DNA of 64,000 nt from NCBI GenBank assembly GCA_024277115.1, contig JAJRVW010000222.1, positions 27,738-91,737 of the forward strand, in the 5' to 3' direction. Positions 12,176 to 62,571 of the stretch are shown in pieces. How positions within the stretch are numbered: position 1 is the stretch's first letter; every line of letters starts with the position of its first letter. The notes under the pieces are model-generated. The model made no database searches and was not told where the DNA came from. It saw nothing but the letters and a program-made list of their open reading frames with translations. Made by a program: the position numbers and the translations under genes. This DNA comes from Calditrichota bacterium (GTDB lineage Bacteria > Calditrichota > Calditrichia > Calditrichales > J004).

Positions 12176-14551
12176 TTAAAACCAGCGCAAGGTACTCACC
12201 CCTAAATATGTTCCCGGCCGATCCAAGCGCCAGGCTACATCCACCCGAAAAAAGCTAAGCAGCCCATTTAAAGAAACGCCTACTTCGTTATGAACCCTGT
12301 TTATATTATTATTGATATAATTCAATTTAGATTTATTTGCGGCTGAAAGCCAACTTTGACCGTGACCGCCAAAAACAATTATCCCAATATTTTTCTCCGC
12401 AAACCAGCGCCAGCCAAGAAGCTCAAAAGGCACACTGCGGAAATTATGTTCCCAAAACAGTGACCAATATTTTTCACCAATATAAGGCAGTCCTCGATTT
12501 GTTTTAAATGTACCAAAAGGCGTGAACCCTTTAAACAAGGAAGCATCCAATACTCCAAGTTTTTGGACTGGCAAATCGCCATTGACAAACCCGGCGCTAA
12601 AAAACAGATCAAGCGTATTGGGCATAAACCGGCGCTGTAAAAAGGTGCGGAAATTCCAGTTCACATTCAATTTATATTGTGTAAAAGAAAAATCGCTGGC
12701 CATAATTTGGGGATTGCTATGTTCGATTGAAAGATCGACCCGTTTTTGCCCTGCAACGCCAAATGGGACAAAACGGTTGCCCCAATGTATTTTTAAACCA
12801 AGGGAGCGCAGGTTTCCTGCATCGATATTAGGATTGGGACGTTGGCTAATATCACGCCCAAAAAGATTATAATTTGAAATTTGCGATGGTAAAGATTCAT
12901 GCTTTTCAATATTGAGCAAACCGGTAAACCGGGTATTAAATTTCCAAATTTTATGACTAAGCTTAAATGTAGCCGCCTGTTTCCAATAATAATCAAAATA
13001 GTCCTGTGCGCCTAACAGGGTTCCTACCGATGTAATCACAGGATGATAATTCTCCGATTCATAATTCATGCCGGAGCCTAAAAAATAATCAGCCTCAAAA
13101 ACAACCGGCTTTTTTTGGCCAAAAGTATACTCTAAACCGTAATTATAGCCCCAGCGTTTAATACCGGTCTTAAAAGCCAGTCCTACCTTCACCTTAAGTT
13201 TTTTGCCAATATACCCTTTATATTTAAATCCAAGATGCCCTTCTTCTACGCGGTTATAGGCCAGATCAGGCGAAAACCCCTTAAAGATTTTTGCGCCGAC
13301 ACCAATGGTATTATTATTATCTTCCTCTTCATCATCTTCAATAAGCATATCAGCCAACAAACCTTTTGGCCGGAACGCTTTTTTAAAACTATCCGTGCTA
13401 TCGATTGTGATATAGGCGGCCTCTTCCTCTTTGGTCAAAGGGATAATCTCCCTGCGCCGTGTAAAAGATGAATCCAATGCGACTGCGGCCGTATCAACAC
13501 GCACGACCCGATCATCTTTGTATAGCGAATCCGGTAAATCCACATTTACATGATAATCCGTTAAGCGCACTGAATTGCTGTATTTTATACGTGGGAAATC
13601 CATGCCCGGGAAACTGATTTTAATCTCACCAATGGCGCGCATATCAACAGGCAACCAAAATTTGCGCCCAAAATTACGGAACTGTTGCTTATAGGCCACA
13701 TTCCACTCATCAATGGGCATGGGGAAAAAGATATTCTCCGGATTGGGTTTTACGTCGATGGCCAACATGGCAAACTCTTTATTTAAAATAGAAACCGTTC
13801 CTATAAATGTTGGGTTCAAAAGCGCAGTGGGAACAAGTTCAATTACGAAAACCGTGTCCTTATCAAAAGCTTCCAGGCGCAGTAGTTTAAACTCATAAAA
13901 CTCAAATGCATCCGGGTGCGTAGGGCCAACTACACGATAATTCATAATTTTTATTTCATCATCATAAAAGTTTTCCACGTTGACGCTAAATGCAAAATTC
14001 CTGGATTTTTTAAGGTTTTTGGTTTCCCGCTGGGAGATTACCACCTCGCGCGCGCCACGTTCTTTATCCCAAAATAAATCGGAGATGCTTTCAGCAACGG
14101 ATACGATTGAGGAATCATTGGCAAGGACAACGCGGGTGTATGCTTCGGCCTTAAATGTTTTAAGTTTCGCCAGCCATTTTTGCTTATTTTTAATCACCTT
14201 GCGCATAATATTCATGGCAGGGTTTTCTGCGGTGACCACAATTGTCTCGGTCTCCAACAAAATCGGTTTTAACAATATTGAAACAGGTTTTTCCGGTGGA
14301 TGGTTAAAAGTCACATTTTTTATCGCATAACCGATATAACTTACCGCAATGTCTACGGGGAATTTTTCCACTTTTAAGATAAATTCACCGTAAACATTCG
14401 TGACCGTACCATGATAGGTCCCTACAATTTGGAGATTAGCGGCGCTTAACGGTTCGCCCGTTTTCTCATCAGCAATAAACCCTTTTATGCTTTTAGATTG
14501 GCCAAAAAGGTTTAAAGTGAAAACAATAAAAAGTAAAATATATTTTATCAC
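12176..14551 (-). CDS. CarboxypepD_reg-like domain plus DUF5686-like outer-membrane beta-barrel protein
   Basis: Signal peptide, then IKGFIADEKTGEPLSAANLQIVGTYHGTVTNVYGEFIL (carboxypeptidase regulatory-like fold). A long beta-rich C-terminus ends in aromatic residues (...TLRWF). Confidence 0.75.
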   Translation of the reverse strand: MIKYILLFIVFTLNLFGQSKSIKGFIADEKTGEPLSAANLQIVGTYHGTVTNVYGEFILKVEKFPVDIAVSYIGYAIKNVTFNHPPEKPVSILLKPILLETETIVVTAENPAMNIMRKVIKNKQKWLAKLKTFKAEAYTRVVLANDSSIVSVAESISDLFWDKERGAREVVISQRETKNLKKSRNFAFSVNVENFYDDEIKIMNYRVVGPTHPDAFEFYEFKLLRLEAFDKDTVFVIELVPTALLNPTFIGTVSILNKEFAMLAIDVKPNPENIFFPMPIDEWNVAYKQQFRNFGRKFWLPVDMRAIGEIKISFPGMDFPRIKYSNSVRLTDYHVNVDLPDSLYKDDRVVRVDTAAVALDSSFTRRREIIPLTKEEEAAYITIDSTDSFKKAFRPKGLLADMLIEDDEEEDNNNTIGVGAKIFKGFSPDLAYNRVEEGHLGFKYKGYIGKKLKVKVGLAFKTGIKRWGYNYGLEYTFGQKKPVVFEADYFLGSGMNYESENYHPVITSVGTLLGAQDYFDYYWKQAATFKLSHKIWKFNTRFTGLLNIEKHESLPSQISNYNLFGRDISQRPNPNIDAGNLRSLGLKIHWGNRFVPFGVAGQKRVDLSIEHSNPQIMASDFSFTQYKLNVNWNFRTFLQRRFMPNTLDLFFSAGFVNGDLPVQKLGVLDASLFKGFTPFGTFKTNRGLPYIGEKYWSLFWEHNFRSVPFELLGWRWFAEKNIGIIVFGGHGQSWLSAANKSKLNYINNNINRVHNEVGVSLNGLLSFFRVDVAWRLDRPGTYLGVSTLRWF

Positions 14552-20857: not shown

Positions 20858-21394
20858 TTACCCTTTGCACATTTCATAAAGTTTGTTTACGGTCCGCCAA
20901 TTCCGGCCGGTTGCCCTTACTTTTAATTTTCTTTCCAAAGTATTATTGTCCAGTTTGGATTTTCCTGCACCGGCAGGCAAGTACATATAAATATGCCCGT
21001 CCTTAAACACAATTTCATCTTGCGGGGTTTTAAGCTTTTCAATTTCATCGAGAGGTATAAGGGGAGGTTTTTCTGCCAGAAAAACAACAAACAAGCGGTT
21101 CAGTTCACGTTCTCCTTTAAAAGGCAGATCATCAATAATACTTTTTATTTCATCTTTATTGCGTATCTGGACCGGTACATCAAAGCCATACCTCTGCTTG
21201 ATGGCTTCTTCAATACGTGCAATTAATTTTAACCGGTCCGGTTCATCGGATTTAAAAACCACATTCCCGCTTTGGATGTAGGTTTGCACCGCATCAAAAC
21301 CCAACGATTCATAAAGTTGTTTTAACTCGGCCATTTTAATCAGCTTTTGGCCGCTTACATTAATACCACGCAATAGGGAAATATATGCTGTCAT
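20858..21394 (-). CDS. DUF1697 domain protein
   Basis: N-terminus YISLLRGINVSGQKLIKMAELKQLYESLGF...IQSGNVVF matches the DUF1697 signature. Confidence 0.8.
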   Translation of the reverse strand: MTAYISLLRGINVSGQKLIKMAELKQLYESLGFDAVQTYIQSGNVVFKSDEPDRLKLIARIEEAIKQRYGFDVPVQIRNKDEIKSIIDDLPFKGERELNRLFVVFLAEKPPLIPLDEIEKLKTPQDEIVFKDGHIYMYLPAGAGKSKLDNNTLERKLKVRATGRNWRTVNKLYEMCKG

Positions 21395-22335: not shown

Positions 22336-22931
22336 TTACACCCACATCCACTGAAAACCTTTGAAGGCAACCCACCCCAAAACGGCTCCCGGGGCCAAAT
22401 CATAAAAATAGTGTTGTTTTGTATAGAGGGCGCTTAAGGCAATGAGCAGCGGGAAAATCCAGGCCCAGGGCGCAAGAAAAGGCGCATTGTAAATTAAATG
22501 CAGGGATGTTAAAGTCGCGACACTCACATGCATACTCGGGAAACAATTGGAACGCGCGTCGATACTTTGTACCAATTTTAAAAACCGGACGCTCACACTT
22601 TTACTTTTTGGCAATTCACGCCAATGGTGCGGCGTTACAACCGGCACGAGGATAAAAAAGGCCATTTGCATGAGCATCAGCATAAAAAACTGATCGCCAT
22701 ATAATTAAACTGGCGCATATCCTGAACCACATAAATAAGCAAAACAATAACCGGGTAATACAAGCCCGAATAAACATAAACCCAGCCCGGCCTCATTTTA
22801 AAAAATGCGTCGATGCGCGTGGCCTTAAACTCACGCGCTTCCCGGAAACTGTTTTTTTGCGTCCAGAAATAGAACTGGTAGATACCGATGATCAGGATAA
22901 TTGTAATTAAAAAACAAACCAGGTAATCCAT
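22336..22931 (-). pseudogene. PAP2-superfamily membrane phosphatase/transferase split by a frameshift at a T6 run
   Basis: ORFs 22677..22931 and 22336..22683 overlap by 7 nt. PAP2-like motifs FPSMHVSVA and HYFYD lie in the downstream part. On the coding strand ...ATC AGT TTTTTT ATG CTG..., one extra T (plus-strand A-run 22684..22689) would join AISFF-MLMLMQMAFFIL. Confidence 0.6.
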
Positions 22932-23740: not shown

Positions 23741-26215
23741 TTATTTTATATTAAGGGGAAAACTTAAAATAAAAACGGTCCCTTCGCCCAATTTGCTTTC
23801 AACCTCAATTGTCCCTTTGTGCGCCTTTACTACATGGGCAACCAAACTTAACCCCAACCCCACACCACCGGAACTTTGGACACTTTCATCCTGCGAACGA
23901 TAAAATGTATCAAAGATGTGCTGCTGATCCTCGTTCGAAATTCCAATGCCCATATCGGCAATTTTAATAATCACGTGGCCATCTTTCAATTCTGTAGATA
24001 TGTGTATTTCTTTTTGTTTATCAGAATACTTAATCGAGTTCGTCAGAACATTTATAAAACCCGAACAAAGCGCATCTTCGTCGGCAGATAAAATTATATC
24101 TTTTTCTAAAAAGTCGGTTTTAACTCTAAATTGACGTTGCTTAAACTGATAATCCATTAGGTGCAGGACATCTTTTAGCACCTTGTTTAAACTGATTTCC
24201 CTAAAATTATAAGCCGTGTTTCCTCGTTCAATCTTTGAAAAATCCAATACGTTTTTTATTAAACGCGAGAGTCGTGCACTTTCGCCTTCAATAATTTTTA
24301 AATATTCTTTTTGTTTTTCTTTTGGGATATTTTCTTTTTCAGCCAATAACTCGGCAAACATTTTGATGGAAGTTAGCGGCGATTGCAAATCATGCGAAAC
24401 ACCGGAGACGAAATAGGATTTTAGACGGTTGAGCTCGTTTAACCTTTCTGTTTCAAGATTTTTTAACAGAAGCTGTTTTTGAAGCTCTGTTCTTTGCAAG
24501 GCCAAACCAAGTTGAATTCCAATTGTTTTTAAAAGGTCTATATCTTCGAGCGTAAATTTTTGCCCGGACTTTTTACGGCCCAAAATCAACATCCCGATTA
24601 TTTCTGCCGTTGGGGATTTTAACGGGACTATCAAACATTTACCGGCTATCTTTAAATTTTTCTTATCCAGCGCTTCAAACGGAATGCCTGATTCCAACAT
24701 ATTAAAATAACTTAAAACAGCCTTTGATGAGTTTTGCGCATAAACAACCAAATCGTCGATTATCTCCCCGGGAAATCGGCCAAAATTTTTACTTGCTGAT
24801 ATTTCCCACACACCTTGTTCGTTTTTTATATAAAATCCGGAAAATTTCACCTGCAATAAATCGTCTATCCGGCGGATTGTCATTTGTACGATGCTTTCTT
24901 TATCCAGGCTTGTGTTTAATTCCTGTGTAAATTTTTGTTGTGCAAGACGATAATTATAACGCACCCTGAAAAATTTCTGATCAACCATTTTTTGCAGAAA
25001 ACGGCGTAGGGGTTCAAATATCAACGGTGTTAGGATGGCCGCCACTACCGTTGTAACCAGCGATGACTCTACTGTAATAAAACCAATAAACAAAACAGAA
25101 AGTCCAACCAGCGCGGCATACATCACCAAAAGGATTAATGCTGTGAAAAAATAAACCGAGCTTCTACGGAAAATATGGTCAATATCGAAAACATGGTATT
25201 TCACAATCGCGATACTAAAAGTAACCGGGACAATTAACATTACAAGAACAATTGTAAACTCTGGAACGATTAAATCAACCGAGAAAACCTGAGGTAGCTG
25301 CCACAAAAAAACAAACGCCGGCGGCCCAATCGCCAGACCAAAAACGACCCAGCGTATCTGCCTGCGCTCCGATTCCTCCTGCGCATGAATTGAAGAATGA
25401 AAAATATTTGCCACGCCAAAGGTCATAGCCACGGCAAAATAGAGGCGGTTTAAATTAAATGCGGTTAGAAGGTGGTTAAACCAATCAAGCGAAACAGTGG
25501 AAGAAGCCATCAGGAACGTACCGCAAAGCGTAATGGCCAATGCCGTCGAGAAACCATATAAAAGATAGCTTAGCTTTTTTAAATTTTGCCATTTATAACG
25601 CGGGAAAACAAAACTTAGATGGATAAATAACGAAGGCACAAAAGCATAGGCAATAAAGAAAAACAATCGTGTAAACTGCCCGATACTAAACTCCCCGGCA
25701 GAATATGTTCCCCATGTTGAGGTGATTATAATTGCCGTCCCAACAGAAGCCCAATGCCAAACATTGGCCATTACAAGTTCCGGGCGTTTGTAGATGACAA
25801 AAACCCCAAAAATAAAAAAGATCAGCCCTACAATGGTTTGGGCGGTGTTATCGATCCAATTATAGTAAAAAGGAAGTTCGATTTTTAAATGGATTTGCTG
25901 CCCATGACGAAGGACTAAAAAGGAAACAATATCACCTTCTGAATAGGAATCCAGGACAAATTCAATCTCTTCTTTGGAGGAAATAGCATGGCCTGCAATG
26001 GCAATAAGTTTGTCCCCCGTTGCAAAATATTTGGTTAGTCCGGGCGAGATAATTTTATTTACATACAACCCGTCTTTTTCCACATTAAAAGAAATATGTT
26101 TTTCGGGGCTGAGGCCGGCCTTTTGTATAATCCGGGTGAGCCCAAGGATGCAAATAATAAGGAGTAAAAAATCTACAACAAATATACGGGAAAGTTTTTT
26201 CCTTAAGTCGTCCAT
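23741..26215 (-). CDS. Sensor histidine kinase (PDZ-like, multi-TM, GAF-like, HisKA, HATPase_c)
   Basis: N-terminal PDZ-like segment (GDKLIAIAGHAISSKEEIEFVL). About 8 hydrophobic helices. H-box YFVSGVSHDLQSPLTSI. ATPase boxes NVLTNSIKYS, DMGIGIS, GGVGLGLSLV. Confidence 0.85.
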   Translation of the reverse strand: MDDLRKKLSRIFVVDFLLLIICILGLTRIIQKAGLSPEKHISFNVEKDGLYVNKIISPGLTKYFATGDKLIAIAGHAISSKEEIEFVLDSYSEGDIVSFLVLRHGQQIHLKIELPFYYNWIDNTAQTIVGLIFFIFGVFVIYKRPELVMANVWHWASVGTAIIITSTWGTYSAGEFSIGQFTRLFFFIAYAFVPSLFIHLSFVFPRYKWQNLKKLSYLLYGFSTALAITLCGTFLMASSTVSLDWFNHLLTAFNLNRLYFAVAMTFGVANIFHSSIHAQEESERRQIRWVVFGLAIGPPAFVFLWQLPQVFSVDLIVPEFTIVLVMLIVPVTFSIAIVKYHVFDIDHIFRRSSVYFFTALILLVMYAALVGLSVLFIGFITVESSLVTTVVAAILTPLIFEPLRRFLQKMVDQKFFRVRYNYRLAQQKFTQELNTSLDKESIVQMTIRRIDDLLQVKFSGFYIKNEQGVWEISASKNFGRFPGEIIDDLVVYAQNSSKAVLSYFNMLESGIPFEALDKKNLKIAGKCLIVPLKSPTAEIIGMLILGRKKSGQKFTLEDIDLLKTIGIQLGLALQRTELQKQLLLKNLETERLNELNRLKSYFVSGVSHDLQSPLTSIKMFAELLAEKENIPKEKQKEYLKIIEGESARLSRLIKNVLDFSKIERGNTAYNFREISLNKVLKDVLHLMDYQFKQRQFRVKTDFLEKDIILSADEDALCSGFINVLTNSIKYSDKQKEIHISTELKDGHVIIKIADMGIGISNEDQQHIFDTFYRSQDESVQSSGGVGLGLSLVAHVVKAHKGTIEVESKLGEGTVFILSFPLNIK

Positions 26216-26270: not shown

Positions 26271-26989
26271 ATGGCGGGTAGGAGCTGACTCCTGTTAGCA
26301 AATATTAATTTAGACCATAACCTGTTGAAGGATGGTTTGCGCACTTGGGAAAGTGCCTCTACCTTCAGGCCAGGCACAGTAATACATATCAAAACGTACT
26401 TTGGAAACCACACTTACCGGCATCTGCATATTTTTCCCGGCAGATGATTCCTTCCGCATCTCGGATTCAACAAAAAAAGGTAGGAGCTGACTCCTGTCAG
26501 CGAATATTAATTTAGACCATAACCTGCGGAAGGATGATTTGCGCACTTGGGAAAGTGCTTCTACCTTCAGGCCAGGCACAGTAATACATATCAAAACGTA
26601 CTTTGGAAACCACGCCTACCGGCATCTGCATATTTTTCCCGGCAGATGATTCCTTCCGCCTATCGGATTCAACAAAAAAGGTAGGCGCTGACTCCTGTCA
26701 GCGAATATTAAATTTATATCATAACCTGCTGAAGGATGGTTTGCGCACTTAGGAAAGTGCTCCTACCTTCAGGCCAGGCGCTGTAATACATTTCAAAACG
26801 TACTTTGGAAACCACGCTTGCCGGCAGATGATTCCTTCCGCCTATCGGATTCAACAAAAAAGGTAGGAGCTGACTCCTGTCAGCGAATATTAATTTAGAC
26901 CATAACCTGCTGAAGGATGGTTTGCGCGCTTAGGAAAGTGCTCCTGCATTATAGATTCTCTCGCTTTGGAAAGCGCTCCTACCCGCCAT
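26271..26989. repeat. Tandem array of ~200-bp non-coding units (about 3.6 copies) bracketed by a 15-bp inverted repeat
   Basis: Units begin with ggtagg at 26277, 26479, 26680 and 26862 (periods 202, 201, 182). atggcgggtaggagc (26271..26285) is the exact reverse complement of gctcctacccgccat (26975..26989). Conserved hairpins occur in every unit. Confidence 0.9.
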
Positions 26990-26996
26990 CGGCAAG

Positions 26997-28457
26997 TTAT
27001 TCCCAGGTGGTGCCTTCGCGTGTATCTTTTAGGGTTATGCCCAATTCTGTAAGCTTATTTCGTATTTCATCGGCCAGGGCAAAGTTTTTCTCCGCGCGTA
27101 GTTGTGCCCGTAAACTGATCAATAATTCCATTACACCGTCCATTTTATCAGAGGAAGTTTCCTCTTTCTCAAAACTCTCCGGCAATAAACCCAGCACATC
27201 ATCTAAAAGGGATTTTAAAACGGATGTCAGTTTTTCCAGCGTTGGGACTGATAACTTATCAGGCTCGCGTTCAATCCAGGAAGCTGTTTTTTTGATAAAA
27301 TCAAATGTGGCCGCAATAGCGCGCGGTGTGTTAAAATCATCATCCATCGCCTCTTGAAAAGCAGCTTCATAAGCTTCAATCTCTTTTTCAAAAGCGTCGT
27401 CTGTTTTTTCGGATAAAGCTTTGGAAGTAAAAACCTTTTCCACAACCGTATATATTTTTTGCAACCCTTTTTCTGCCGCTTGCAGTGCTGTTTCGCTAAA
27501 ATCGAGCGTGGCGCGGTAATGACTGGTTAAAATAAAAAATCGAATAGCCAGTGGCGGATAGCTCTCTAAGGCCGCTTTTAAGGTTTTAAAATTCCCCAGC
27601 GATTTGCCCATTTTCACACCATCGACATTGACCATATTATTGTGCATCCAGTACTTCACAAAAGGTTTGCCATTGGCCGCCTCACTTTGGGCAATTTCCG
27701 ATTCATGATGCGGGAATTTGTTTTCCATACCGCCACCGTGGATATCGAAAGTCTCGCCCAAATATTTGTTGGACATGCAGGAGCATTCCAAATGCCAGCC
27801 GGGATAGCCTTTGCCCCAGGGACTGTTCCAGCGCATCAGATGGGTTGGATCGGCTTTTTTCCAGAGGGCAAAATCCGCCGCGTTGCGTTTATCGCTTTTT
27901 ACCTCAACACGGTGCCCTTCACGCATTTCATCCACCGAGCGGCCAGATAGCTTGCCATAATCCTTAAACTTTTCCACCTCAAAATAAACATTGCCATCGG
28001 CCTCGTAGGCATACCCTTTTTCCATCAAAGTTTGGATCATCTCCACTTGCTCCGGGATATGACCGGATGCCCGCGGTGAAATATCCGGGCGCAACACATT
28101 TAAAACATCCATGTCCTCAAAATAACTTCGGGTATAATTTTCAACCACTTCCATCGGCTCCAATCGCTCCAACCGGGCCTGCTCGGCAATTTTATCTTCG
28201 CCCTCGTCCGCGTCACTTTGCAGATGGCCCACATCGGTAATATTTTGAACATAGCGCACCTTATACCCCAAATGCCTGAAATAACGCACGATCACATCAA
28301 AGCTGATGTAACTTTTGGCATGGCCCAAATGCGAATCGCCATAAACCGTTGGCCCGCATACATAAATGCCTACAAAACCCGGGTTGATGGGAACAAATTC
28401 TTCTTTTTTACGAGAGAGCGTGTTGTATAAAACCAGATTGTTTTCTTTTAAGCCCAT
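26997..28457 (-). CDS. cysS: Cysteine--tRNA ligase
   Basis: Class I HIGH (GDSHLGHA) and KMSKS (KMGKSLGN) motifs. Full length, 486 aa. Confidence 0.97.
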
Positions 28458-28459
28458 GA

Positions 28460-29431
28460 TTATTTTATCGCTTCCTGTACTATTTTTTCAACTAATTTTT
28501 CAAAGCTATATCCCGCCTCTTTGGCCGCCTTTGGGAATAAACTTGTTTCGGTCATGCCCGGTAATGTGTTAGCCTCCAATATATTCAGCCGATTCTCTTC
28601 ATCCACCAAAAAATCAATCCGTGCGTAACCTTTGCAGCCTAACAGTCCGTACATTTTGCAAGCATAGTCTTGTATTTTTTCCGTTATTTTTTGATCTAAT
28701 TGTGCGGGCACCTCATAGCTGCTCATGCCCGGCGTATATTTGCATTCGTAATCGTACATATCGTGTGTTGGTTTGATATGCACCAAAGGCAACGCTTGCC
28801 CGTCCAACACACCGGCCGCAATTTCTTTACCAGAGATAAATTCCTCGATTAAAACTTTTTTTCCATATTCAAAGGCAAATTTAAGGGCCTCTTCCATTTT
28901 GTCATCATTTTGTAAAACCGTATGTCCCAACGACGAGCCACCATCAGCCGGTTTAACAATCACCGGGAAATTCAGTTCTTTTAAATTGATTGTTTCATCG
29001 GCGTTGCGGACAGCAATTGATTTTGCTGTGGGCAGGCAGGCTTGCAGCAAAATCATCTTGGAAATCTCTTTATCCATGGCAAGCATGCAGGCCATAGCGC
29101 TCGATCCGGTATATTTTATTTTTAAAGTATCGAGTAAGGTTTGGACCACGCCATTTTCACCATCGCCGCCATGCAGGCCATTAAAAACCAGATCAATGTT
29201 TAACTGGGAGAGTAAAAACAGCTTTGCGTACAGGCCATGCTTTTCTTCAAAACCAGGCATGTTTCCGGGACGAATCTCCAGATCGGCCACAAGTTTTTGC
29301 AAAGGGAGCCCGGTATCGATTGCAAAGACTTTGTGCCCTAATTTCCTCAGGGCATCAACTATATTTTTACCTGAATCCAAAGAGACATCCCGTTCGGGAG
29401 ATGTCCCGCCCAATAAAACGGCTATTTTCAT
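28460..29431 (-). CDS. ddl: D-alanine--D-alanine ligase
   Basis: An internal Met gives the canonical N-terminus MKIAVLLGGTSPERDVSL. ATP-grasp motifs are present. The longer listed ORF would overlap the glnS 3' end. Confidence 0.92.
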   Translation of the reverse strand: MKIAVLLGGTSPERDVSLDSGKNIVDALRKLGHKVFAIDTGLPLQKLVADLEIRPGNMPGFEEKHGLYAKLFLLSQLNIDLVFNGLHGGDGENGVVQTLLDTLKIKYTGSSAMACMLAMDKEISKMILLQACLPTAKSIAVRNADETINLKELNFPVIVKPADGGSSLGHTVLQNDDKMEEALKFAFEYGKKVLIEEFISGKEIAAGVLDGQALPLVHIKPTHDMYDYECKYTPGMSSYEVPAQLDQKITEKIQDYACKMYGLLGCKGYARIDFLVDEENRLNILEANTLPGMTETSLFPKAAKEAGYSFEKLVEKIVQEAIK

Positions 29432-29477
29432 ATTCTTTTCTTTATGGTATTGCAGAGACAAAATGCATCCCCACGGT

Positions 29478-31166
29478 TTATCCGTTTTTCTTCGCCCAGC
29501 TATCGCGTAAACCGACCGTTTTATTAAATATAGGTGCACCCGGCTTGGAATCCACCGAATCAACGAAAAAATAACCTTGGCGTAAAAACTGAAAATACAT
29601 GCCGGCCTGCGCATCTTTTAAACTCGGCTCGGTTTTGGCCGTAATCACTTTTAACGAATCAGGGTTAAGGCATTCCTCAATCTCACCTTTATCCGGTTCC
29701 GGCTCGGTAAAAAGATGATCATATAAACGCACTTCGGCATTGTATGCATGCTCGATTGAAACCCAGTGCAATGTCCCTTTAACTTTGCGCCCATCATCCG
29801 ACCAGCCACCACGGGTTGCCGGATCGTATGAGCAACGCAATTCTATAATTTTGCCGTTTTCATCCTTGATCACATCCGTACAGGTGATGTAGTAAGCATG
29901 TTTTAAACGCACTTCTTTGCCCGGGGCCAGGCGGAAATATTTACGAGGCGCGTCTTCCATAAAATCATTGCGCTCAATATAAATCTCCCGGGAGAATGGT
30001 ACAGTCCGCTTGCCGGCGCTTTCATCCTCAGGATTATTGACGGCTTCCAATTCTTCCGTTTGGCCTTCGGGATAATTTTCAATCACAACTTTAATGGGGT
30101 CCAAAACAGCCATTACACGCAGGGCCCGTTTGTTCAGGTCCTCCCGTAAACTTGCATAAAGTTGGGCAATATCCACGAGGCTATTGGCCTTTGCCACGCC
30201 CACGCCATCACTAAAGTTACGGATCGCTTCCGGTGTATAACCCCGTCTGCGCAGTCCTGCAATTGTAGGCATTCGCGGATCGTCCCAGCCTGTAACAAAC
30301 TTATCCTGTACAAGTTTTAATAACTTACGCTTGCTCATAACTGTGTAGGATAAATTCAGCCGGGCAAATTCAATCTGCCGTGGATGGTGGATGCCAAGCT
30401 GCTCTACAAACCAATTATACAAAGGCCGATGGTCTTCAAATTCCAAAGTGCAGATGGAATGGCTGATGCCCTCGATTGAATCGGACTGGCCATGCGCCCA
30501 ATCGTACATGGGGTAAATTTTCCATTTGTCGCCCGTACGGTGGTGGTGCACTTTTAAGATACGGTACATAACCGGGTCGCGCATATTTAGGTTTGGTGAG
30601 GACATATCAATTTTTGCCCGTAAAACTTTTGAGCCTTCATCAAACTCGCCACGGGTCATTTTTTCAAACAGTTCCAAATTCTCCTCAACAGAACGGTCAC
30701 GATACGGGCTGTTTTTTCCGGGCTTGGTTAAGGTGCCCCGATATTCCCGGATTTCTTCGGCATTCAAATCTTCCACATAAGCCTTGCCCGCTTTTATAAG
30801 CTGGATGGCATAAGCATGTAATTGGTCAAAATAATCTGAAGCATAAAACTCTGTTTCGCCCCAATCAAATCCAAGCCATTTCACATCTTCTTTTATGGAA
30901 CGGACATATTCGTCTTCTTCCTTGCTGGGATTTGTATCATCGAAACGTAAATTGCACACGGCATTGTACGACTCGGCCAATCCAAAATTTAAACAAATGG
31001 ATTTTGCATGACCAATGTGCAGGTAGCCGTTGGGTTCCGGTGGAAAACGGGTGTGTACTTTTTTATATTGCCCCGCTTTCAAATCTTCTTCAATAAAAGT
31101 ACGGATGAAGTTTGATGGGGATTTAGTTTCTTCGTTTGTCGTATTTTTTTCGTTCATTTTACTCAT
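29478..31166 (-). CDS. glnS: Glutamine--tRNA ligase
   Basis: [17 protein letters not shown] (HIGH) and VMSKRKL (KMSKS). The C-terminal anticodon-binding beta-barrels are present. Start chosen at MSKMNEKN; the upstream ATG at 31253 is also possible. Confidence 0.94.
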
Positions 31167-31270
31167 TGTTTTTTTTGGGTTAAAACCCTGATTATTAGAG
31201 TTAAGTTTATCACCTCGCCATTTATGACAGGGATACCATGGCCTATAGAACAATGTCTTTAGCCCAACAT

Positions 31271-32719
31271 TTACACATATTTTTCCAAAGCCTGCTGTAC
31301 AAAACTACACACTTTTTCTTTACCAAAAACATCGATGACCAAAGGTAAGTCCGGGCCGGATTCTGCGCCTGTCAGCGCCACACGCACCGGTTTCCATAGG
31401 AAGGGGCCTTTGATCCCTTTTTCTTTTTGGATTTCTTTCATCACGGGCTTAAACGCATCTGAGTCAAGGTGGCCCAATGTATTAACTTTTTCTAAAAATG
31501 TTTCCAGAACTGCGCGGGCCGTTTCTTCTTTTAAAATATCCAGGGCTTCCTTCTCGTCAATTTCCAACACATCATTGATAAATATTTTGGCTGCCGTTTT
31601 AACATCGGTGGCTTTCTCGATACGTTTCTGCACAGCAAGGCAAATTTTTGCAGTCTTCTCCTTGTCTGAAGTATCAATGCCGGCATCTTCTAAAAAGGGT
31701 TGTAAAAATTCAACCAATTGCCCTTCATCCAAAGTACGGATATAATAGCCGTTCATCCATTCCAGTTTGGAAATATCAAAAACAGCGCCGGCCTTATTTA
31801 CCCGTTCCAGCGAAAAAGCTTCAATTAGTTCTTCCATGCTAAATATTTCCTGATCCGTTCCATCGCCGGGGCTCCAACCAATAAGCGCCACAAAATTTAC
31901 TAAAGCCTGCGGTAAAAATCCTTTGCTACGATAATCCTCCACGGCCACATCGCCCTGCCGTTTACTCAACTTGGAACGGTCTTCATTTAATAAAAGGGGC
32001 AGATGGGCAAACTGCGGTAAATCCCATCGAAAAAACTGGTACAGTAAAACATGTTTGGGCGTGCTTGGCAACCATTCTTCACCACGGATAACATGGGTTA
32101 TTTTCATAAGATGGTCATCCACAACATTGGCCAGGTGGTATGTTGGGAAACCATCACTTTTTAAAATGACCTGATCGTCCAGAACTTCATTCTGAAAAAC
32201 AACTTCGCCACGAACAATGTCATTTACGATAGTTTCACCTGTCTGTGGCACTTTTAGGCGAACCACATATTGATCCGTTTTCATCCTTTGCTCAGCTTTG
32301 TCTTTTGGATAATCACGATAACGGCCATCATATTTTGGGTCCTGGCCGGCAGCAATCTGCTCTTCGCGCATTTTTTCCAATTCTTCGGATGTGGCAAAAC
32401 AAGGGTAGGCTTTGTCTTCGTCCATCAATTGCTGCACATATTTTTTATAAATATCCAGGCGTTTCGATTGTTTATAAGGGCCATAATCGCCCGGATTGTC
32501 AATGCTTTCATCAAAAGAAATCCCGGGCCATTCCATCGTATCGATCAGGTTTTCGATAGCCCCTTCTACAAAACGCGCCTGGTCAGTATCTTCGATACGC
32601 AACACACACGTACCATTATTTTTTTTTGCAAACAGGTAATTATACAGCGCCGTTCTTAAACTCCCAATATGCACAAACCCGGTCGGGCTTGGCGCAAACC
32701 TTACACGAACATCAGACAT
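31271..32719 (-). CDS. gltX: Glutamate--tRNA ligase
   Basis: [19 protein letters not shown] (HIGH-type) and KLSKRQG (KMSKS). 482 aa. Confidence 0.96.
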
Positions 32720-35539: not shown

Positions 35540-36136
35540 TTAAATTACCTGTAAGGCCTGTTTTAATAAATCTTCAACAATCTTTAATTTTTCGGTTTTC
35601 TGCGCTTTTTCAATCGCTTTATTTGCCGCAATCCGTGTATACCCAAGCGACATTAGCGCCATCATCGCTTCTTGTTCAACACCGTTCAAAGTCTTTTCTG
35701 TACGATTTATTCCCTGGCCGGCCGTTACTTCTAACTTTCCAAATTTATCTTGCAGCTCCACCACAAGCCGTTGCGCCGTCTTCTTGCCAACCCCGGAAAT
35801 TGTATTTAAAGTCTTCTCATCGCCCGTCTGGATCGCATGTATCAGCTCATCGGGCGTTAATCCTGATAAAATTGTTTGGGCGAGTTTTGGCCCGATCCCG
35901 GAAATAGAAAGCAGGCTTAGGAAGACCTCTCTTTCCCGTACCTCAAAAAAACCGTACAACTGTAAAACATCTTCACGTACATGAAGATAGCTCATCAATT
36001 TTATCTTGTCACCCGCCTGGGGAATATGTTTAAAGGTAGATAAAGATATTTTAAGGAGATAACCAACGCCACTAACATCCAGTACAACTTCTGTAGGTTT
36101 TTTAGAATCTATAATCCCATTTATATATTAATACAT
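35540..36136 (-). CDS. ruvA: Holliday junction DNA-binding protein RuvA, with in-frame TAA as codon 3 (36128..36130)
   Basis: The listed ORF (TTG at 35998) lacks the OB-fold N-terminus. The same frame upstream reads ATG TAT TAA TAT ATA AAT GGG... = [30 protein letters not shown]. This is the canonical RuvA N-terminus. The ATG (36134..36136) overlaps the ruvC stop as TAATG. Confidence 0.8.
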
Positions 36137-41284: not shown

Positions 41285-41451
41285 AATAATTGAAAAATCT
41301 TCCTTAACAATCCATCCCGTCCTTAGGCCTTTCCTATTCTTTTAGATTAACATGAGTTTGATATAAAATATTTTCAACAGAATAAATTTAGTGGAATTAC
41401 TGAAAACCCTATGTATACTTGATCATCGAACCCAGTATAGTTTAACTCTGT

Positions 41452-44601: not shown

Positions 44602-46038
44602 TTACCCCAGCTTCTTGCGCAAAATCTCATTTGTTTGCCTTGGATCGGCCTTGCCTTTGGAAGCTTTCATTACTGAACCCACAAAAAAGCCAATAAGTTT
44701 CATTTCACCGTTTTTATAGCGTTCCACCTGTGCCGGATTTTCTGCAAGCACCTGGTCAATCAGCTTATCCAGCTCGCTGCTATCCGAGATTTGCGAGAGC
44801 CCTTCCTGCTCAATGATTTGCGCAACACTTAGGTCAGATTCGACCATTTTCTCAAAAACAGTTTTTGCCGCACTGCCGCTTATTGTTTTTTCTTCGATGG
44901 ACTTTAATAAATCGGATAACCTTGTCGGCGTAACACTAAGCTTGCCAATCTCAACTTTTTGTTGATTGACCAGGCGCATCACCTCGCCCATTATCCAGTT
45001 GCTTGCCAGTTTTGCATTGGCTACATTTTTAACGGTTGCCTCAAAATAGTCGGCCACCTCTTTGGACGCGGTCAATACCTCCGCATCATATTCGGGGATT
45101 TTATACTGCGACACAAAGCGGTTACTTTTTGCGTCAGGCAATTCGGGCAAGGCTTGATAAATGTCATCCAGCCAAAGTTGTTCAATTATTACCGGCACAA
45201 GATCGGGATCGGGGAAATAGCGATAATCATGCGAGTCTTCTTTACCACGCATGGATTTGGCCACATTTTTAACCGGGTCCCACAAAAGTGTTTCCTGTAA
45301 AATAGTTCCGCCATCCTCAAGGATATATTTTTGGCGTTTAATTTCATATTCCAAAGCACGTTCCACATTGCGGATGGAGTTCATATTTTTAAGCTCGGCT
45401 TTGGTACCAAGCTCTTTTTGTCCTACCGGACGCAGGCTGATATTGGCATCGCAGCGCAAACTGCCCTCGTCCATATTCCCATCACAAATGCCGAGGTAGC
45501 GCACAAGTTGACGTATTTTTGTAAGATAGGCGGCGGCTTCTTTGGGCGAGCGCATATCCGGCTCGCTTACAATCTCGATAAGCGGCGTACCACAACGGTT
45601 TAGGTCAATCAGCGTTTCATTTTTACTGACATAACTTTCATCATGTACAGATTTCCCTGCATCTTCTTCCATGTGGATGCGTGTAATGCCGATGCGTTTT
45701 TCCGTACCATCCACATTTATATCCAAATAGCCATGTTCGCAAATGGGCTCGTCAAACTGTGAAATTTGATACGCTTTGGGCGAATCGGGATAAAAATAGT
45801 TTTTACGGGCAAATGTATTTATACGGTTAATTTGCGAGTTTGTAGCAAAGCCCATTTTGATGGCATACTCGACCACCTTTTTATTGAGAACGGGCAATAC
45901 GCCGGGCATCCCCAGGCAAACCGGGCAAACCTGCGAATTGGGTTCGGCACCAAATTGCGTACTGCACCCGCAAAATATTTTTGAATTTGTTGAAAGTTGG
46001 GCGTGTACCTCAAGCCCAATTACGACTTCGTAGTTCAT
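44602..46038 (-). CDS. gatB: Asp/Glu-tRNA amidotransferase subunit B
   Basis: [19 protein letters not shown]...[12 protein letters not shown], and the C-terminal YqeY-like tail. Confidence 0.96.
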
Positions 46039-46207
46039 TTTAATCTCTTACATAAATAGATTTTATTTTTATTATCCTGCACAAATATAGAACAGACTGA
46101 TCAAATCCAATTAAAAACCATAGGGATAATTAAAGCTATAAATGATTTGCCCCTTTAAAATCGTGGGATTCAAAAAACAAATAATTAATGAATCGAGTAT
46201 AAACAAG

Positions 46208-46760
46208 TTCCCCCTTAACGAAGGGGGTTAGGGGGTTGTCCATTACTACTAGAAAGTCCATTTATTAGGGGCTTATCCTACTCCTCAGAGCTTCAATCTT
46301 ATCAGCTATAACTTGGAGTGTACCATCTATTTGTTTTATTACATAATGCCCGTCAAAACGGATTATTTCTAATCCAATCTCCCTCAAGATACTTTCTCTC
46401 TGCAAATCATATTTTTGTTTTCCATCGTGGGTAATTCCATCTATTTCAATTACCAGATGTAATTTGCTACAATAAAAATCAACTATATAATTATCAATGG
46501 GTTTTTGCCTTGTAAACTTACACCCAAGCAGCTGACTGTTTTTAAGATGTTTCCAAAGTAACCGTTCGCCGAATGTAGCATTCTTTCTTAGCTCTTTGGC
46601 ACGTTCTTTTAGTTTTGTATTATAGTAGATTTTCAATTGATGAATGAATTATTATTTATTTAAATACTTCTCAATTTCAAATTTAATTTTAAAATTGACC
46701 TTTCAAGATACTCCTTTACCGTCGTCTGACAACCCCCTAGCCCCCTTTGTTAAGGGGGAA
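46208..46760. mobile_element. DUF559 endonuclease cassette bounded by 33-bp inverted repeats
   Basis: ttcccccttaacgaagggggttagggggttgtc (46208..46240) matches the reverse complement of gacaaccccctagccccctttgttaagggggaa (46728..46760) at 31/33. Each arm contains its own ccccctt/aaggggg hairpin. The interior looks AT-rich relative to the flanks. Confidence 0.5.
46265..46636 (-). CDS. DUF559 (Vsr-like) endonuclease domain protein
   Basis: ERLLWKHLKNSQLLGCKFTRQKPIDNYIVDFYC...LVIEIDGITH...D..RESILREIGLEIIRF is the DUF559 pattern. Confidence 0.8.
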   Translation of the reverse strand: MKIYYNTKLKERAKELRKNATFGERLLWKHLKNSQLLGCKFTRQKPIDNYIVDFYCSKLHLVIEIDGITHDGKQKYDLQRESILREIGLEIIRFDGHYVIKQIDGTLQVIADKIEALRSRISP

Positions 46761-46770
46761 TTGATTCTTT

Positions 46771-48183
46771 TTATAATTTTTCTATAAAAGTGCCCAAATC
46801 AAAAAGGGCCTGCTCGTTAAAAGCCCTGGCCTGAAGCTGAAGCCCAAAAGGCATTCTGTTGGAATGCATCCCGGCAGGAATACTAATCCCGCAAATGCCG
46901 GCCAGGTTTGCCGAAACAGTATAAATATCCTGTAAATACATGGAAAGCGGGTCATCGGATTTCTCGCCAATCTTAAAAGCAGTGGTTGGCGTAGTTGGCG
47001 ATAAAATTACATCACATTTTTTGAAAGCCGTATCAAAATCATTTTTTAATAAACGACGGACCTGCTGTGCTTTTTTATAATAGGCATCGTAGTAGCCGGC
47101 AGAGAGCACATAAGTACCCAATAAAATACGCCGTTGTACCTCCTCACCAAATCCTTCGCTACGCGTTTTTTCATACATATCGGTCAAGCCCGTCCCTTCA
47201 TCGATACGCATACCATAATGCACCCCGTCAAAGCGAGAGAGATTGGACGACGCTTCGGCTGTGGCAATAATATAATAAATGGCGATGGCATATTCGGCCG
47301 TAGCAAGATCAATCTCCACAAGTTCCGCGCCCTTTTCTTTTAAGCGGTCGGTAATCTGTACTATCCGGGATTTAATTTCCGGATCGAGACCATCGGCAAA
47401 ATACTGTTTTGGGAGGCCAATTTTTAAACCGGTAACACTACTGTTTTTTTGATTAATATAATCGGGTACGGTAATATCCGCAGAAGTAGAATCCAACACA
47501 TCATGCCCGGCAATGGCATTTAACACAAAAGCCGTATCTTGGGTAAAATTGCCAAATATTCCAATCTGGTCCAGCGAAGACGCAAAAGCGACAAGCCCGT
47601 AACGGGATAATCGCCCATAAGAAGGTTTTAATCCCACTGTGCCTGTAAAAGAAGCAGGCTGCCTAACCGAACCACCCGTATCACTGCCCAGCGCTATATC
47701 AGCGCAACCCGTTGCAACCGCTACTGCCGAGCCGCCACTGGAACCACCAGGTACCATTTCCGGGTTATGGGGATTTTTAACCGGGCCAAAAGCTGAGTTT
47801 TCGTTGGAAGAGCCCATAGCAAACTCATCAAGATTGGTTTTTCCAATGATGAGGGCATCTTCGGTTTTCAGTTTTGTTACCACCGTTGCATTATACGGCG
47901 ATTTAAACTCACCAAGGATTTTACTTCCGCAAGTGGTGATTTCATCTTTAATATTTATGTTGTCTTTAATGGCAATAACCAAACCGGCCAGTGCGCCAAC
48001 CTTTTCACCGGCCTTAATTTTACGATCAATCTAGACTGCTTTTAAACGAGTTTTTTCCGGGAAGGTGTTTAAAAAAATATTTAAACATTTATTTTCTTCA
48101 ATCTTTTCAAAGCAATCATTTAGATGATTAACCGCCGAAAGTTTACCGTTTTTAATGGCCTGGACAATTTCTGTTGCCTGCAT
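46771..48183 (-). CDS. gatA: Asp/Glu-tRNA amidotransferase subunit A, with in-frame TAG at 48031..48033
   Basis: The listed ORF begins at an internal TTG (GLVIAIKDN). The same frame upstream reads MQATEIVQAIKNGKLSAVNHLNDCFEKIEENKCLNIFLNTFPEKTRLKAV*IDRKIKAGEKVGALAG from the ATG at 48181..48183. This is the normal GatA N-terminus. Amidase signature GGSSGGSAVAVA is present. Confidence 0.85.
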
Positions 48184-48187
48184 TCAT

Positions 48188-48412
48188 TTACTCGCTCTTA
48201 GGGGTATCATCTTCTTTTTTTGAATTATCGACCTTATCCTCTTTAAGCGGCGCATTAATATCCAACTCGCTCTGAATATCCTGCGAGGCCCGTTTAAACT
48301 CGTTAATCCCTTTGCCCAGACCTTTGGCCAGTTCCGGTAATTTTTTTGAACCAAAAACCAGGAGAATAATAAATAAGATCACCAGCAATTCTGTTGTTCC
48401 TATTCCAAACAT
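48188..48412 (-). CDS. tatA: Twin-arginine translocase TatA/E family protein
   Basis: MFGIGTTELLVILFIILLVFGSKKLPELAKGLGKGINEFKRA is the canonical TatA pattern. Confidence 0.88.
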   Translation of the reverse strand: MFGIGTTELLVILFIILLVFGSKKLPELAKGLGKGINEFKRASQDIQSELDINAPLKEDKVDNSKKEDDTPKSE

Positions 48413-56882: not shown

Positions 56883-57011
56883 TTAATCGGCTAGTCTTTC
56901 ATCTATTTGTTTTTTTAATTGGCTTATTTTGCCTTGCAATGATAAAAGGTACCCGAAAATCCCCGCCCAAACAATTAAAATAATACCTAATACAACATAA
57001 ATATCCGACAT
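56883..57011 (-). CDS. ccmD: Small membrane protein, CcmD-like (absent from the ORF track)
   Basis: ATG at 57009..57011 directly follows the ccmC stop (TAAATG). It translates to MSDIYVVLGIILIVWAGIFGYLLSLQGKISQLKKQIDERLAD (42 aa, one TM helix plus a charged tail). Position and size match CcmD. Confidence 0.6.
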   Translation of the reverse strand: MSDIYVVLGIILIVWAGIFGYLLSLQGKISQLKKQIDERLAD

Positions 57012-57695
57012 TTAATTCTCCTGATTAACTAATTTTTGAAAATTCATTTTTATACGGATGAGTGACTTTTTTAAGTGCATCATCCAGAAAAAGACAATGG
57101 TAAACCCACCCAAAGAAGATAAGAAAACAGTCAGCATTTTTGCATCCATTTTCATCTTAGCTTCCTGGTTGATTAATGGATCGGGGTGCAATGATTCATA
57201 AACACGTGGGATTATAAAAATAAAAAATGGTACGGTCACAAAAGCTAAAATAGAATACACCGCCGATAACCGCGCTTTGGTTTCTTCGACCTCGACTGCC
57301 GAGCGTAACGAAAAATAAGCGCCGTAAATAAGTAACAAAATAAAAATAGAGGTTTGGCGCGGGTCCCAGTTCCAATACGCGCCCCAGCTCTCTTTGGCCC
57401 ATAAAGCGCCTGTTACCGTGGCCAGCAAACAAAATATTATCCCCAGTTGGCTTGCAGCTTCCGCGTAATAATCAAAAAGAATATTACGTTTGCGCAAATA
57501 GAGAACGCTGTAAAAGGCACCGAGGAAAAAGGCCACAACTGTAACCCAGGCCACCGGTACATGAAAATACATTACCCGAGTAAACTCCCCAAGCCCTTTG
57601 GCCAGCGGCGCATAGAGGTAGGCCCCGATAATTACAAGGCTTAAGAAAATAAAGAGAAGCCCCTGCCATGTGTATTTTAAAATTTTGTTGTTCAT
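57012..57695 (-). CDS. ccmC: Heme exporter protein CcmC
   Basis: WWD motif WGAYWNWDPRQTS. Six TM helices. Confidence 0.9.
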   Translation of the reverse strand: MNNKILKYTWQGLLFIFLSLVIIGAYLYAPLAKGLGEFTRVMYFHVPVAWVTVVAFFLGAFYSVLYLRKRNILFDYYAEAASQLGIIFCLLATVTGALWAKESWGAYWNWDPRQTSIFILLLIYGAYFSLRSAVEVEETKARLSAVYSILAFVTVPFFIFIIPRVYESLHPDPLINQEAKMKMDAKMLTVFLSSLGGFTIVFFWMMHLKKSLIRIKMNFQKLVNQEN

Positions 57696-60217: not shown

Positions 60218-62571
60218 CTATTTTATCAACAAAACCTTTTGGCTTTGGCTGTATTGCCCGGATTTTACCTGAACAAAATAGAGGCCGGAACTGATGTATT
60301 TTCCCAAAGATGAATGACCGTCCCATTTAACAAAATGCCAACCGGCCTGTTGACGGGCAAAGTTTTGTACCCATGTTTCACGGCCCATCATGTCAAAAAT
60401 AGTGAGCGTTACATTCTGGGTTTTGGGCAAACTATATTTTATGACCAACTCCCCGTTAAACGGATTGGGGTAGGAGTTGACTTTGAACGAAGCCGGTAGG
60501 TTGCCCCCGTCTTCAATAGCAGTCGGGGCGTTGCTTTCAGCAGGCGTCGGGCTTAAAAACCCCCAATTTGTACTACCATCGGGTTTACGCCCAAAAGAAA
60601 CATCCGCCGTTTGTGCGCCAAAGGTGAGCGAATCAACAATCGAAATACCATCGGGGGCGGTTAAGGCCAAAAATTCACCGGACGCGCTCAGTTTAAAATT
60701 TGTATGCAAAGGCCCTTGCGCCTGGTCTTCGTCACACCAGATAAGTAAAAAGCCCTTGGCTGCAAGCAAGGACGAATCCTGAGGGAAAGTCCATTTTTGT
60801 AAATTATCATTTTTATCGCTCAGATAATAGCCGGCCAGGTCAACCGCTTCATCGGATGCATTATATAGCTCGACCCAATCGTCAAACTCGCCCGCCTCGT
60901 CCGCCTGGCTTGCATTGTTTTTTGCCAGAAATTCATTGATAAATATCTGCCCTTTCCCGCTTCCGGGCACAGCGATTTTTATTTTTTCCAAACGGGGATA
61001 TGTTTGCGGCTTGCCGGCACTGTCTTCGGCAAAAATAATAAACGCCATCGAGCCATCCACGCCCAAAGGTGGCAAAGTAATTTCCCAACGATCGGCATCT
61101 TCCACACGTTTACTGCCCAAAACAGGCCGGAATAAAAAGGGGGATTTATGGACTTGCGCCTGTCCGTTTAAAAGATATTGCAGCTCCACTTTTTTTAACC
61201 CCGCCCCGGCAAACAATGCAGCCGTGATTTTTATGCTGTCCCCAACTGCCGGACGCTTGGGGAAATAGTGCACATTATAAATATTGGGGCTGGTGTTTTT
61301 ATAATCCAGTTGCCCGATAATGGACTGGTTGCGCTGAATGACAAATTCCCGAATACCTTTTTTTACATGGCCCGGGTTGGAATAATTTTCGGAGAATGAA
61401 CCACGAAAATCATCATCGGTGAAACCATAATCTTTGGTGCGGAAGGTATCGGCCAGGGCGGCGTCAAGGATCATATTATACAAACTGTCCAGGCGGTTTT
61501 CCCAAAGGGGCAGCGCATAAACATTTTGGTTGTAAAAGGAAATAAAATGGCTGTATAAATCCCTAAATTGGTCATTGGCAAGCACACGCTCGGTGAGAGG
61601 CCGGTAATTCTCATAAATTTTAGGCCAGGCATAAATATCGGCTGTGGCCCAGTCAACATTAAACCAATCAATGCCCATAATATTGTCATAATCGTAAGGG
61701 ATCAGGTAAAACCGGTCCTGCTCAGGCTGATGGTACAAATAATAATTATTAACGTTGGACCAGTAATCGTCCCAACTGCCCAGCAAAACATTCATGGCCA
61801 TATATTTTAACAGGGCCGGCACGTCCAAATCTTTTTCCAACGCATCGGCAAAGGCGCCATCGGAGGTTTTGTTGATCGTGTAGATCAGGTCGGCCAACTG
61901 GCCATAATCATCCTCGGTTTTATTCCGCTTAAGCTCGTAAACCCGCCGGTCGCCTTGTATATGTTTATAATCGTCCGGGTTATCACCTCGATAGTTGAGG
62001 TCCGCGGGCCACAAACATTTCCAGAGATTGCGGGATTCATCCACAAAATTTTTCTTTAAAAACTCTTTGTCATAATGCTCCACGGAAATATACAGGCCGT
62101 AATACACCACATTTATGTAGATTTTTGCATGGGCCGCGCGCGATGTTTTCATACCGATCTGCCCAAAGAAATCCCAGGCCAGTTTAGAGCGGATAATAGA
62201 GGGATCGTTATGTTCGCCATTAAGGTTGAGTTTATCAACACCATAAAATTCACGGCCATCGATAAAATATTCAAAATCCAGTTTAAACGATTTTTTTGTG
62301 CTGCGCGGGAGGTATTGCCACGCAGGCGAAAACCAACCGAGTCGATTATCTCATCGATAAAGGCATTTTTAAAATGAACGGTGGCAAAATGGAGCGAGTC
62401 ACTTTGCTGGTTTTCTTCGCGGTATAAAAAGTCCAGCACTTCGGGCGCCGTGGTGATATGTATCTCGGCAAGCTGGGAATCATCATACAGCTTCCAACTA
62501 TTATCCTGGGTAAATGATAAGCCTGACGAGGCTAAAATTAGTATGAATACCTGAAAATATTTCAATCCCAT
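60218..62571 (-). pseudogene. CotH-family protein with lamin-tail (LTD) and T9SS C-terminal sorting domains, split by a frameshift at an A7 run
   Basis: ORFs 62149..62571 and 60218..62152 overlap. After GFRLRGNTSRAAQ the alternative frame reads KKSFKLDFEYFIDGREFYGVDKLNLNGEHNDPSIIRSKLAWDFFGQIGMKTSRAAHAKIYIN, which is continuous CotH sequence. One extra A (plus-strand T-run 62291..62297) restores the frame. LTD (IFINEFLA...DDWVELYN) and T9SS tail (SYPNPFNGELVIKYSLPK...KVLLIK) are present. Confidence 0.7.

Follow-up and report, generated by a model that had tools for sequence, protein, structure and literature searches.

In several bacteria, including Thermus, Deinococcus and Bdellovibrio, the GatCAB amidotransferase coexists with both GlnRS and AsnRS, and its role there is the tRNA-dependent synthesis of asparagine (PMC4206432). 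The stretch of DNA analysed here (64,000 nucleotides of a contig from the metagenome-assembled genome of an uncultured Calditrichota, hereafter the window) likewise holds glnS together with gatA and gatB in one genome. The GatA encoded in the window resembles the bacterial GatCAB subunits of solved structure, those of Aquifex (3h0l), S. aureus (2df4) and the P. aeruginosa Asn-transamidosome (4wj3), in its full-length homology, its catalytic triad and the proximity of gatB. Unlike these bacterial genes, however, the window gatA has its reading frame interrupted at codon 51, and a cassette encoding a DUF559 protein separates gatA from gatB.

Reduced GatCAB function has been described in mycobacteria, where hypomorphic gatCAB mutants show increased Gln>Glu and Asn>Asp mistranslation and increased tolerance to rifampicin (PMC7541841). 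The gatA lesion in the window, if real and leaky, would likewise lower amidotransferase activity. The comparison is nonetheless limited: mycobacteria lack GlnRS and AsnRS (PMC7541841), whereas the window encodes GlnRS, and the window allele carries no sign of being real or selected.

A second class of precedent is technical, namely gene breaks caused by consensus errors in draft and metagenome-assembled genomes. The window resembles such cases in that its gene-breaking changes are private and involve single bases, all of the substitutions are G:C>T:A, one deletion falls in a run of seven T residues, and no evolutionary sign of decay is seen. It differs in containing few indel errors, and the likeness is drawn from the assembled sequence rather than from reads. 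Oxidative G>T/C>A artefacts and homopolymer indels are both known from the sequencing-methods literature.

Identity and ancestral state of the interrupted gatA

On the minus strand, the gatA frame opens with an ATG at 48183..48181, runs through 50 sense codons to the TAG at 48033..48031, and continues through a further 419 sense codons to a TAA at 46773..46771 (Table 1). A list of open reading frames splits it into a 50-aa ATG-initiated frame (48031..48183) and a 403-aa TTG-initiated frame (46771..47982). The original prediction had placed the start of the listed gene at this internal TTG and had recovered a normal N-terminus from the upstream ATG, interrupted by the TAG; its coordinates, frame and gene identity all proved correct. 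With the stop rendered as X, the read-through protein scores 622.2 bits against TIGR00132 (cutoff 481.1), and residues 8 to 469 match positions 3 to 462 of the 466-position model, leaving the homology unbroken across the stop. By score and by near end-to-end coverage the gene belongs to the GatA family, its one departure being the TAG at codon 51. The 50 residues ahead of the stop agree at 49 of 50 positions with the protein of the closest relative (P0001), and the open frame upstream of the stop is, on this comparison, not due to chance. The Lys-Ser-Ser triad of the amidase signature (K73, S148 and S172) is invariant in a 25-sequence alignment and aligns with the solved GatA chains; we take these residues to be the equivalents of K79, S154 and S178 of S. 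aureus. The gene contains no stop or frameshift other than the TAG at codon 51, so that the earlier claim of an otherwise undamaged gatA is borne out both by translation and by comparison with relatives.

Table 1. Features of the window discussed in the text (positions in the 64,000-nt window; L081 to L085 are loci of relatives).
Feature	Position	Strand	Description
Receiver gene (stand-alone), in-frame TAG	stop 5136..5138; gene 5016..5390	minus	TCG in L083 and L084
370-aa hypothetical gene, 1-nt deletion	11690..11702	minus	Split into ORFs 11670..12020 and 10924..11607
198-aa PAP2 gene, 1-nt deletion	22684..22689	minus	Split into ORFs 22677..22931 and 22336..22683
cysS	26997..28457	minus	In aminoacyl-tRNA synthetase cluster 26997..32719
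glnS (glutamine--tRNA ligase)	29478..31253	minus	TIGR00440, 765.8 bits (cutoff 425.8), model 1-524/524
gltX (bacterial-type GluRS)	31271..32719	minus	Adjoins glnS
ruvA, TAA at codon 3	stop 36128..36130; gene 35540..36136	minus	GAA in L081
gatB	44602..46038	minus	Intact; NF004014, 763 bits, residues 1-477
Insertion relative to L081	46041..46776		736 bp, between gatA and gatB; BLAST breakpoints
DUF559 gene	46265..46636		Within the gatA/gatB insertion; DUF559 match
gatA	46771..48183	minus	470 codon positions, codon 51 a stop, terminal TAA; identified by TIGR00132 and relatives
gatA codon 51, in-frame TAG	48031..48033	minus	Coding-strand G>T (C>A in plus-strand terms)
gatA codon 33	48085..48087	minus	TGT (Cys), GGT (Gly) in L081; private G>T
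tatA	48188..48412	minus	Directly upstream of gatA; protein 100% identical to that of L081

The best database matches to the gatA product all come from uncultured Calditrichota. The two closest relatives, loci L081 and L082, are uncultured Calditrichota from JGI sample 3300082588, L082 representing a separate strain from the same sample. The L081 protein (P0001, 474 aa) is 94% identical to the window GatA and carries Glu at the position of the stop; over 561 nt around the site the two DNAs are 99% identical, with TAG in the window facing GAG in L081. The L082 protein (P0121) also has Glu at codon 51, again with G as the first base of the codon. The observation that the TAG lies one substitution away from GAG was therefore apt, since GAG is what L081 has. 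Among 23 full-length aligned homologues, codon 51 encodes E, D, N, T or I, and a stop in none (0/23). These comparisons make the TAG a G>T substitution in a GAG glutamate codon, private to the window.

Database records add little from outside this group of contigs. A 403-aa NCBI protein (P0002), encoded on a 112-kb contig, is 100% identical to the listed window ORF and is evidently the source record's own shortened gatA gene call. A GatA protein search of a genome collection returned, among the matches listed, proteins of 50-57% identity from other phyla. No independent assembly of the same population was found in the collections searched. A DNA pattern across the stop that allowed any base (N) at the variable position matched nothing in a metagenome collection from which the L081 contig is also absent. 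Exact-protein look-ups of P0002 and of the window gatB and ccmA products returned no record, and that of TatA returned the L081 contig only.

The substitution pattern of gatA gives no sign of decay. Codons unique to the window lineage comprise 22 synonymous and 5 nonsynonymous changes, compared with 46/15 in L081 and 48/31 in L082, and the corresponding figures for window-unique codons of gatB are 26 and 3. The window-unique gatA sites are mostly third-position transitions, G:C>T:A accounting for 3 of the 35 polarised window-unique substitutions in the three-way alignment. The features of an established pseudogene are absent: constraint is not relaxed, and there is a single disrupting lesion. 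Judged by these codon counts, gatA is clearly under purifying selection in the window lineage and in both relatives. Constraint has thus persisted to near the present, and the stop must therefore be either extremely recent or not biological. Moreover, gatA is kept across Calditrichota, a strong conservation that argues for a gene that is probably still needed in the clade.

Two further features of the gene were observed. gatA is a recombination mosaic (47825..48304 against the rest), its first ~360 nt being 97-100% identical to L081 and 64-84% identical to L082, while the remaining part is about 83-98% identical to L081 and L082 alike. At codon 322 (47217..47219) a private R322H change puts His (CAT) in a position that is otherwise invariant, all 23 other aligned homologues having Arg.

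Companion lesions and the substitution spectrum

Gene-by-gene comparison covered 42 genes with counterparts in three syntenic JGI loci (23 in L081, 14 in L083 and 5 in L085). Private gene-breaking single-base lesions occur in 5 of the 42 genes in the window and in none of the 42 in the relatives. That the gatA stop is one of five such lesions is the most informative fact of this analysis, and it is a point that the original prediction did not contain.

Two of the companion lesions are stop codons. In ruvA, the RuvA_N model matches over its full length (1-61/61) across the stop, at residues 1 to 62, and the ORF finder reports the gene merely as a 152-aa TTG-initiated fragment. In the stand-alone receiver gene, the Response_reg model likewise spans the stop (IPVLIV*AHAMGF), which replaces a Ser found in 15 of 15 homologues; the source record calls an 89-aa stump (P0150). 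The remaining two are single-nucleotide deletions. In the hypothetical gene, the window reads GTGGC-TGAAATGG against GTAGCACAAAATGG in the 370-aa gene of L083, and the PAP2 gene has a run of six T residues where L085 has seven. A chimeric codon arising from the mixing of strains was considered and rejected for the stop codons, as no relative has a gatA codon 51 beginning with T or a receiver Ser codon with A at its second position.

All three nonsense changes are G:C>T:A (GAG>TAG in gatA, GAA>TAA in ruvA and TCG>TAG in the receiver gene). This class makes up 27% of the possible stop-creating single-base changes in the window genes, giving p ~0.02 for three out of three under a uniform spectrum; the outcome is even less likely than this figure, because real mutation spectra favour transitions. 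Changes of the G:C>T:A class arise from 8-oxoG damage during library preparation and from cross-talk between the G and T channels, and they are also the in vivo signature of unrepaired 8-oxoG. A second private G>T lies within gatA itself, where codon 33, 54 nt upstream of the stop, encodes a Cys seen in no homologue; the two private G>T changes, which lie on one strand, sit in a 480-nt tract with one other difference from L081.

The signature does not extend to the window as a whole. Among ~1,900 real differences from L081, the directional spectrum is symmetric (G>T 85 against T>G 101; C>A 73 against A>C 92), no broad excess of G>T/C>A was found relative to L081 or L082, and the nonsynonymous share of G>T is ordinary (10/56). 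Pervasive homopolymer error was rejected, nearly all 1-nt gaps being paired alignment artefacts; uncompensated coding indels number only two in the window. Since there is no overall excess of G>T/C>A, any layer of error must be thin. Its size can be gauged from the nonsense yield: a random G:C>T:A change would create a stop in about 8.4% of cases, and three stops therefore imply a few dozen G:C>T:A changes in the 64 kb.

We infer a technical cause rather than a real mutation: the gatA TAG is probably a consensus or base-call error, or a minor variant captured by the assembly. Under this reading, the GAG>TAG change would most likely be absent from the working gatA of the dominant organism, and the TAG would stem from a miscalled or oxidatively damaged base or from a rare variant that became the consensus where coverage was low. 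It would be part of a thin layer of assembly defects, each of a single base, that also hit ruvA, the receiver gene, the PAP2 gene and the hypothetical gene. The cell would make a normal 470-aa GatA with Glu51, and its ribosomes would behave normally. In favour of such an error stand the unconserved stop, the broken state of 5 of 42 genes, the uniform G:C>T:A class of the nonsense changes (3/3), the paired G>T changes in gatA, the deletion in a T7 run and the lack of decay. Against it, short-read assemblers normally need several concordant reads, and substitution errors in a consensus are rare unless coverage is very low. The symmetric overall spectrum, the ordinary nonsynonymous fraction of G>T and the limited extent of homopolymer errors also count against it, and loss of GatA might be survivable with GlnRS present.

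Several other candidate lesions were rejected. The ORF at 20858..21394 starts at a normal DUF1697 N-terminus, and that at 12176..14551 has a typical beta-barrel ending, "RWF"; the gene at 23741..26215 is intact in comparison with P0171 and is preceded by non-coding sequence; an indel at 41293 falls ahead of the true start codon (ATG). The difference in ccmD is due to an insertion in L081 and is not a lesion of the window. No Pfam model matches the ORF at 62149..62571, which lies upstream of the CotH gene, and a frameshift there is unproven. The window ccmD (56886..57014) is an ordinary short gene, and L081 has a 143-aa version (871..1302) with a ~300-bp N-terminal insertion flanked by duplicated junction sequence. 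After the DUF5686 outer-membrane gene, the intergenic segment 12020..12176 is open in frame for 52 codons; its translation, of the '...GRDAINRVST...' type, points away from coding sequence and towards a hairpin or REP-like repeat.

Competing accounts of the stop codon

The strongest alternative, which we regard as possible but on balance unlikely, is a real nonsense mutation that arose very recently in the population or cell sampled, making gatA a fresh pseudogene or a strong hypomorph. Its loss would be tolerated by virtue of GlnRS, together with AsnRS and/or an asparagine synthetase possibly encoded elsewhere in the genome, and the G:C>T:A stops would come from unrepaired oxidative damage, for example in a MutY/MutM-deficient or long-dormant lineage. 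How far GatA is needed bears directly on this account. The original prediction had treated GatA as normally indispensable where GatCAB supplies Asn-tRNA and/or Gln-tRNA, a premise that is weakened for Gln-tRNA by the full-length glnS in the window and that holds at most for Asn-tRNA or asparagine. The glnS product carries the Pfam domains tRNA-synt_1c, 1c_C and 1c_C2, and its best-scoring model is the Deinococcus-type NF011291 (GlnRS/YqeY-fusion), matched over positions 5-560 of 769; unlike that type, the window GlnRS lacks the YqeY extension. As a full-length glnS is present, Gln-tRNA-Gln can be made directly and GatCAB is not needed for it. GatCAB would thus be required at most for Asn-tRNA-Asn or for tRNA-dependent asparagine synthesis. 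Neither an asnS nor a second gatA was seen among the window genes. The synthetase cluster that contains cysS, glnS and gltX (26997..32719) also includes ddl in between.

The presence of full-length glnS therefore speaks for a tolerated loss, as do the coexistence of GatCAB with GlnRS and AsnRS in several bacteria (PMC4206432) and the tolerance of many gatCAB mutations by mycobacteria (PMC7541841). The three stops all belong to the 8-oxoG mutation class, and assemblers usually report majority alleles. Set against this are the purifying selection on gatA and its retention across Calditrichota, which mark the gene as one that matters in the clade, and the lack of an asnS in the window. Five fresh breaks in 42 genes without a rise in dN/dS would in addition require a very recent burst, and the window-unique gatA changes, mostly transitions with 3/35 G:C>T:A, do not look like the product of a mutator.

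It is improbable that a real stop is bypassed by a near-cognate or suppressor tRNA of the ochre type (reading UAG and UAA), or by context-dependent leakiness of UAG-A, yielding some full-length GatA. The premature stops are all UAR (UGA 0/3), an A follows the gatA stop, and position 51 is variable (E, D, N, T, I), so that an inserted residue would probably be tolerated. However, most G:C>T:A nonsense paths yield UAR anyway, and suppression cannot account for the two frameshifts. The stop is absent from all orthologues and is therefore not a programmed recoding site; nor is there a stimulatory structure downstream, the 121 nt at and after the stop folding with an MFE of -22.5 kcal/mol where shuffled sequences average -22.3 (z = -0.06). 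The 64-kb window contains no tRNA gene, and an Rfam search of it gave no match. Among 65 likely genes, TAA ends 50, TAG 8 and TGA 7, and an efficient UAR suppressor would be costly with such usage. TAG also terminates normally: it ends at least four genes 2-9 residues past the end of the matched Pfam model, namely queA (match ending at residue 342/343, model 322/322), a DUF5655 gene (residue 174/176, model 108/109), ccmB (CcmB match, residue 210/219, model 209/215) and a gene for a T9SS-tail protein (Por_Secre_tail match, residue 640/644, model 73/75). The original prediction had offered three candidate explanations without choosing among them: a base-call or assembly error, a nonsense mutation or a variant within the population, and read-through, whether tolerated or programmed; the first two gain from the private G>T and the four other lesions, whereas read-through loses from the unconserved stop and from the normal termination at TAG.

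Quite improbable, too, is a reading with real stops, in which a recent burst of 8-oxoG-type G:C>T:A changes, following for example MutY/MutM loss or long dormancy in sediment, was survived with a leaky gatA UAG and strongly reduced GatCAB activity. If this were so, the effect would be confined to Asn decoding or asparagine synthesis, as GlnRS is present, and the outcome would be Asn>Asp mistranslation. Mistranslation of the Asn>Asp type is adaptive in mycobacterial gatCAB mutants (PMC7541841).

The source record annotates a shortened GatA, which would be functional through re-initiation at the TTG at 47982. We consider this highly improbable. The 403-aa ORF does keep the Lys-Ser-Ser triad and the remaining amidase fold, but the TTG lies six residues ahead of the catalytic Lys73, and the 20 nt upstream of it contain no purine-rich Shine-Dalgarno-like motif. 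The 66 missing residues are conserved in all homologues and align to ordered GatA structure from residue 5-6 onward (2df4, 4wj3), and none of the 120 best matches is so short, save the source record's own call. On this comparison, a functional 403-aa GatA appears unlikely.

Reassignment of TAG to an amino acid, by an alternative code or pyrrolysine, would fit the two in-frame TAGs of gatA and the receiver gene, both of which are intact apart from the stop, but has next to no chance of being right: it is effectively refuted by the genuine TAG terminators of queA, the DUF5655 gene, ccmB and the T9SS-tail gene, the two TAGs replace different residues (Glu and Ser) for which the relatives use ordinary sense codons, the same window has a TAA lesion and two frameshifts, and neither a tRNA nor a pyl gene was seen in it.

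Implications for annotation and the surrounding genes

With a technical error as the preferred reading, the locus serves mainly as a caution, since a housekeeping gene interrupted by an in-frame stop in a metagenome-assembled genome resembles a recoding candidate. Near-identical relatives expose it as a private one-base change with companion gene-breaking changes on the same contig. There is no departure from known biology, and nonsense codons private to a single draft assembly are commonplace. The public record lists shortened products of 403 aa for gatA and of 89 aa for the receiver gene, and three further genes (ruvA, the PAP2 gene and the 370-aa gene) are broken in its sequence; such broken gene calls could mislead analyses of pathways or completeness. 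Were the changes real, they would point to a lineage that is a natural mutator through oxidative damage and whose amidotransferase is crippled, but nothing requires such a reading. As by-products, the analysis provides a list of the affected genes and, through gatA, gatB and glnS, documents the coexistence of GlnRS and GatCAB genes in a Calditrichota lineage.

In the gene neighbourhood, gatB is 96% identical to its L081 orthologue and has no stops, and gatC was not seen among the window ORFs scanned. In L081, which lacks the insertion between the two genes, gatA and gatB overlap by 4 nt. Inactivation of gatA by the insertion carrying the DUF559 gene was rejected as an explanation: L082 has the same 46041..46776-type insertion and yet an intact gatA, and the insertion is therefore unrelated to the gatA stop. 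The insertion has the look of a small cassette, either mobile or polymorphic. It also holds a G-rich hairpin, and DUF559 has a Vsr-like endonuclease fold.

The interval from cysS to a PDZ/GAF histidine-kinase gene contains a tandem repeat with a 202-nt unit (26277..26942; 3.4 copies, 90% match), which overlaps a 94-aa ORF without a Pfam match.
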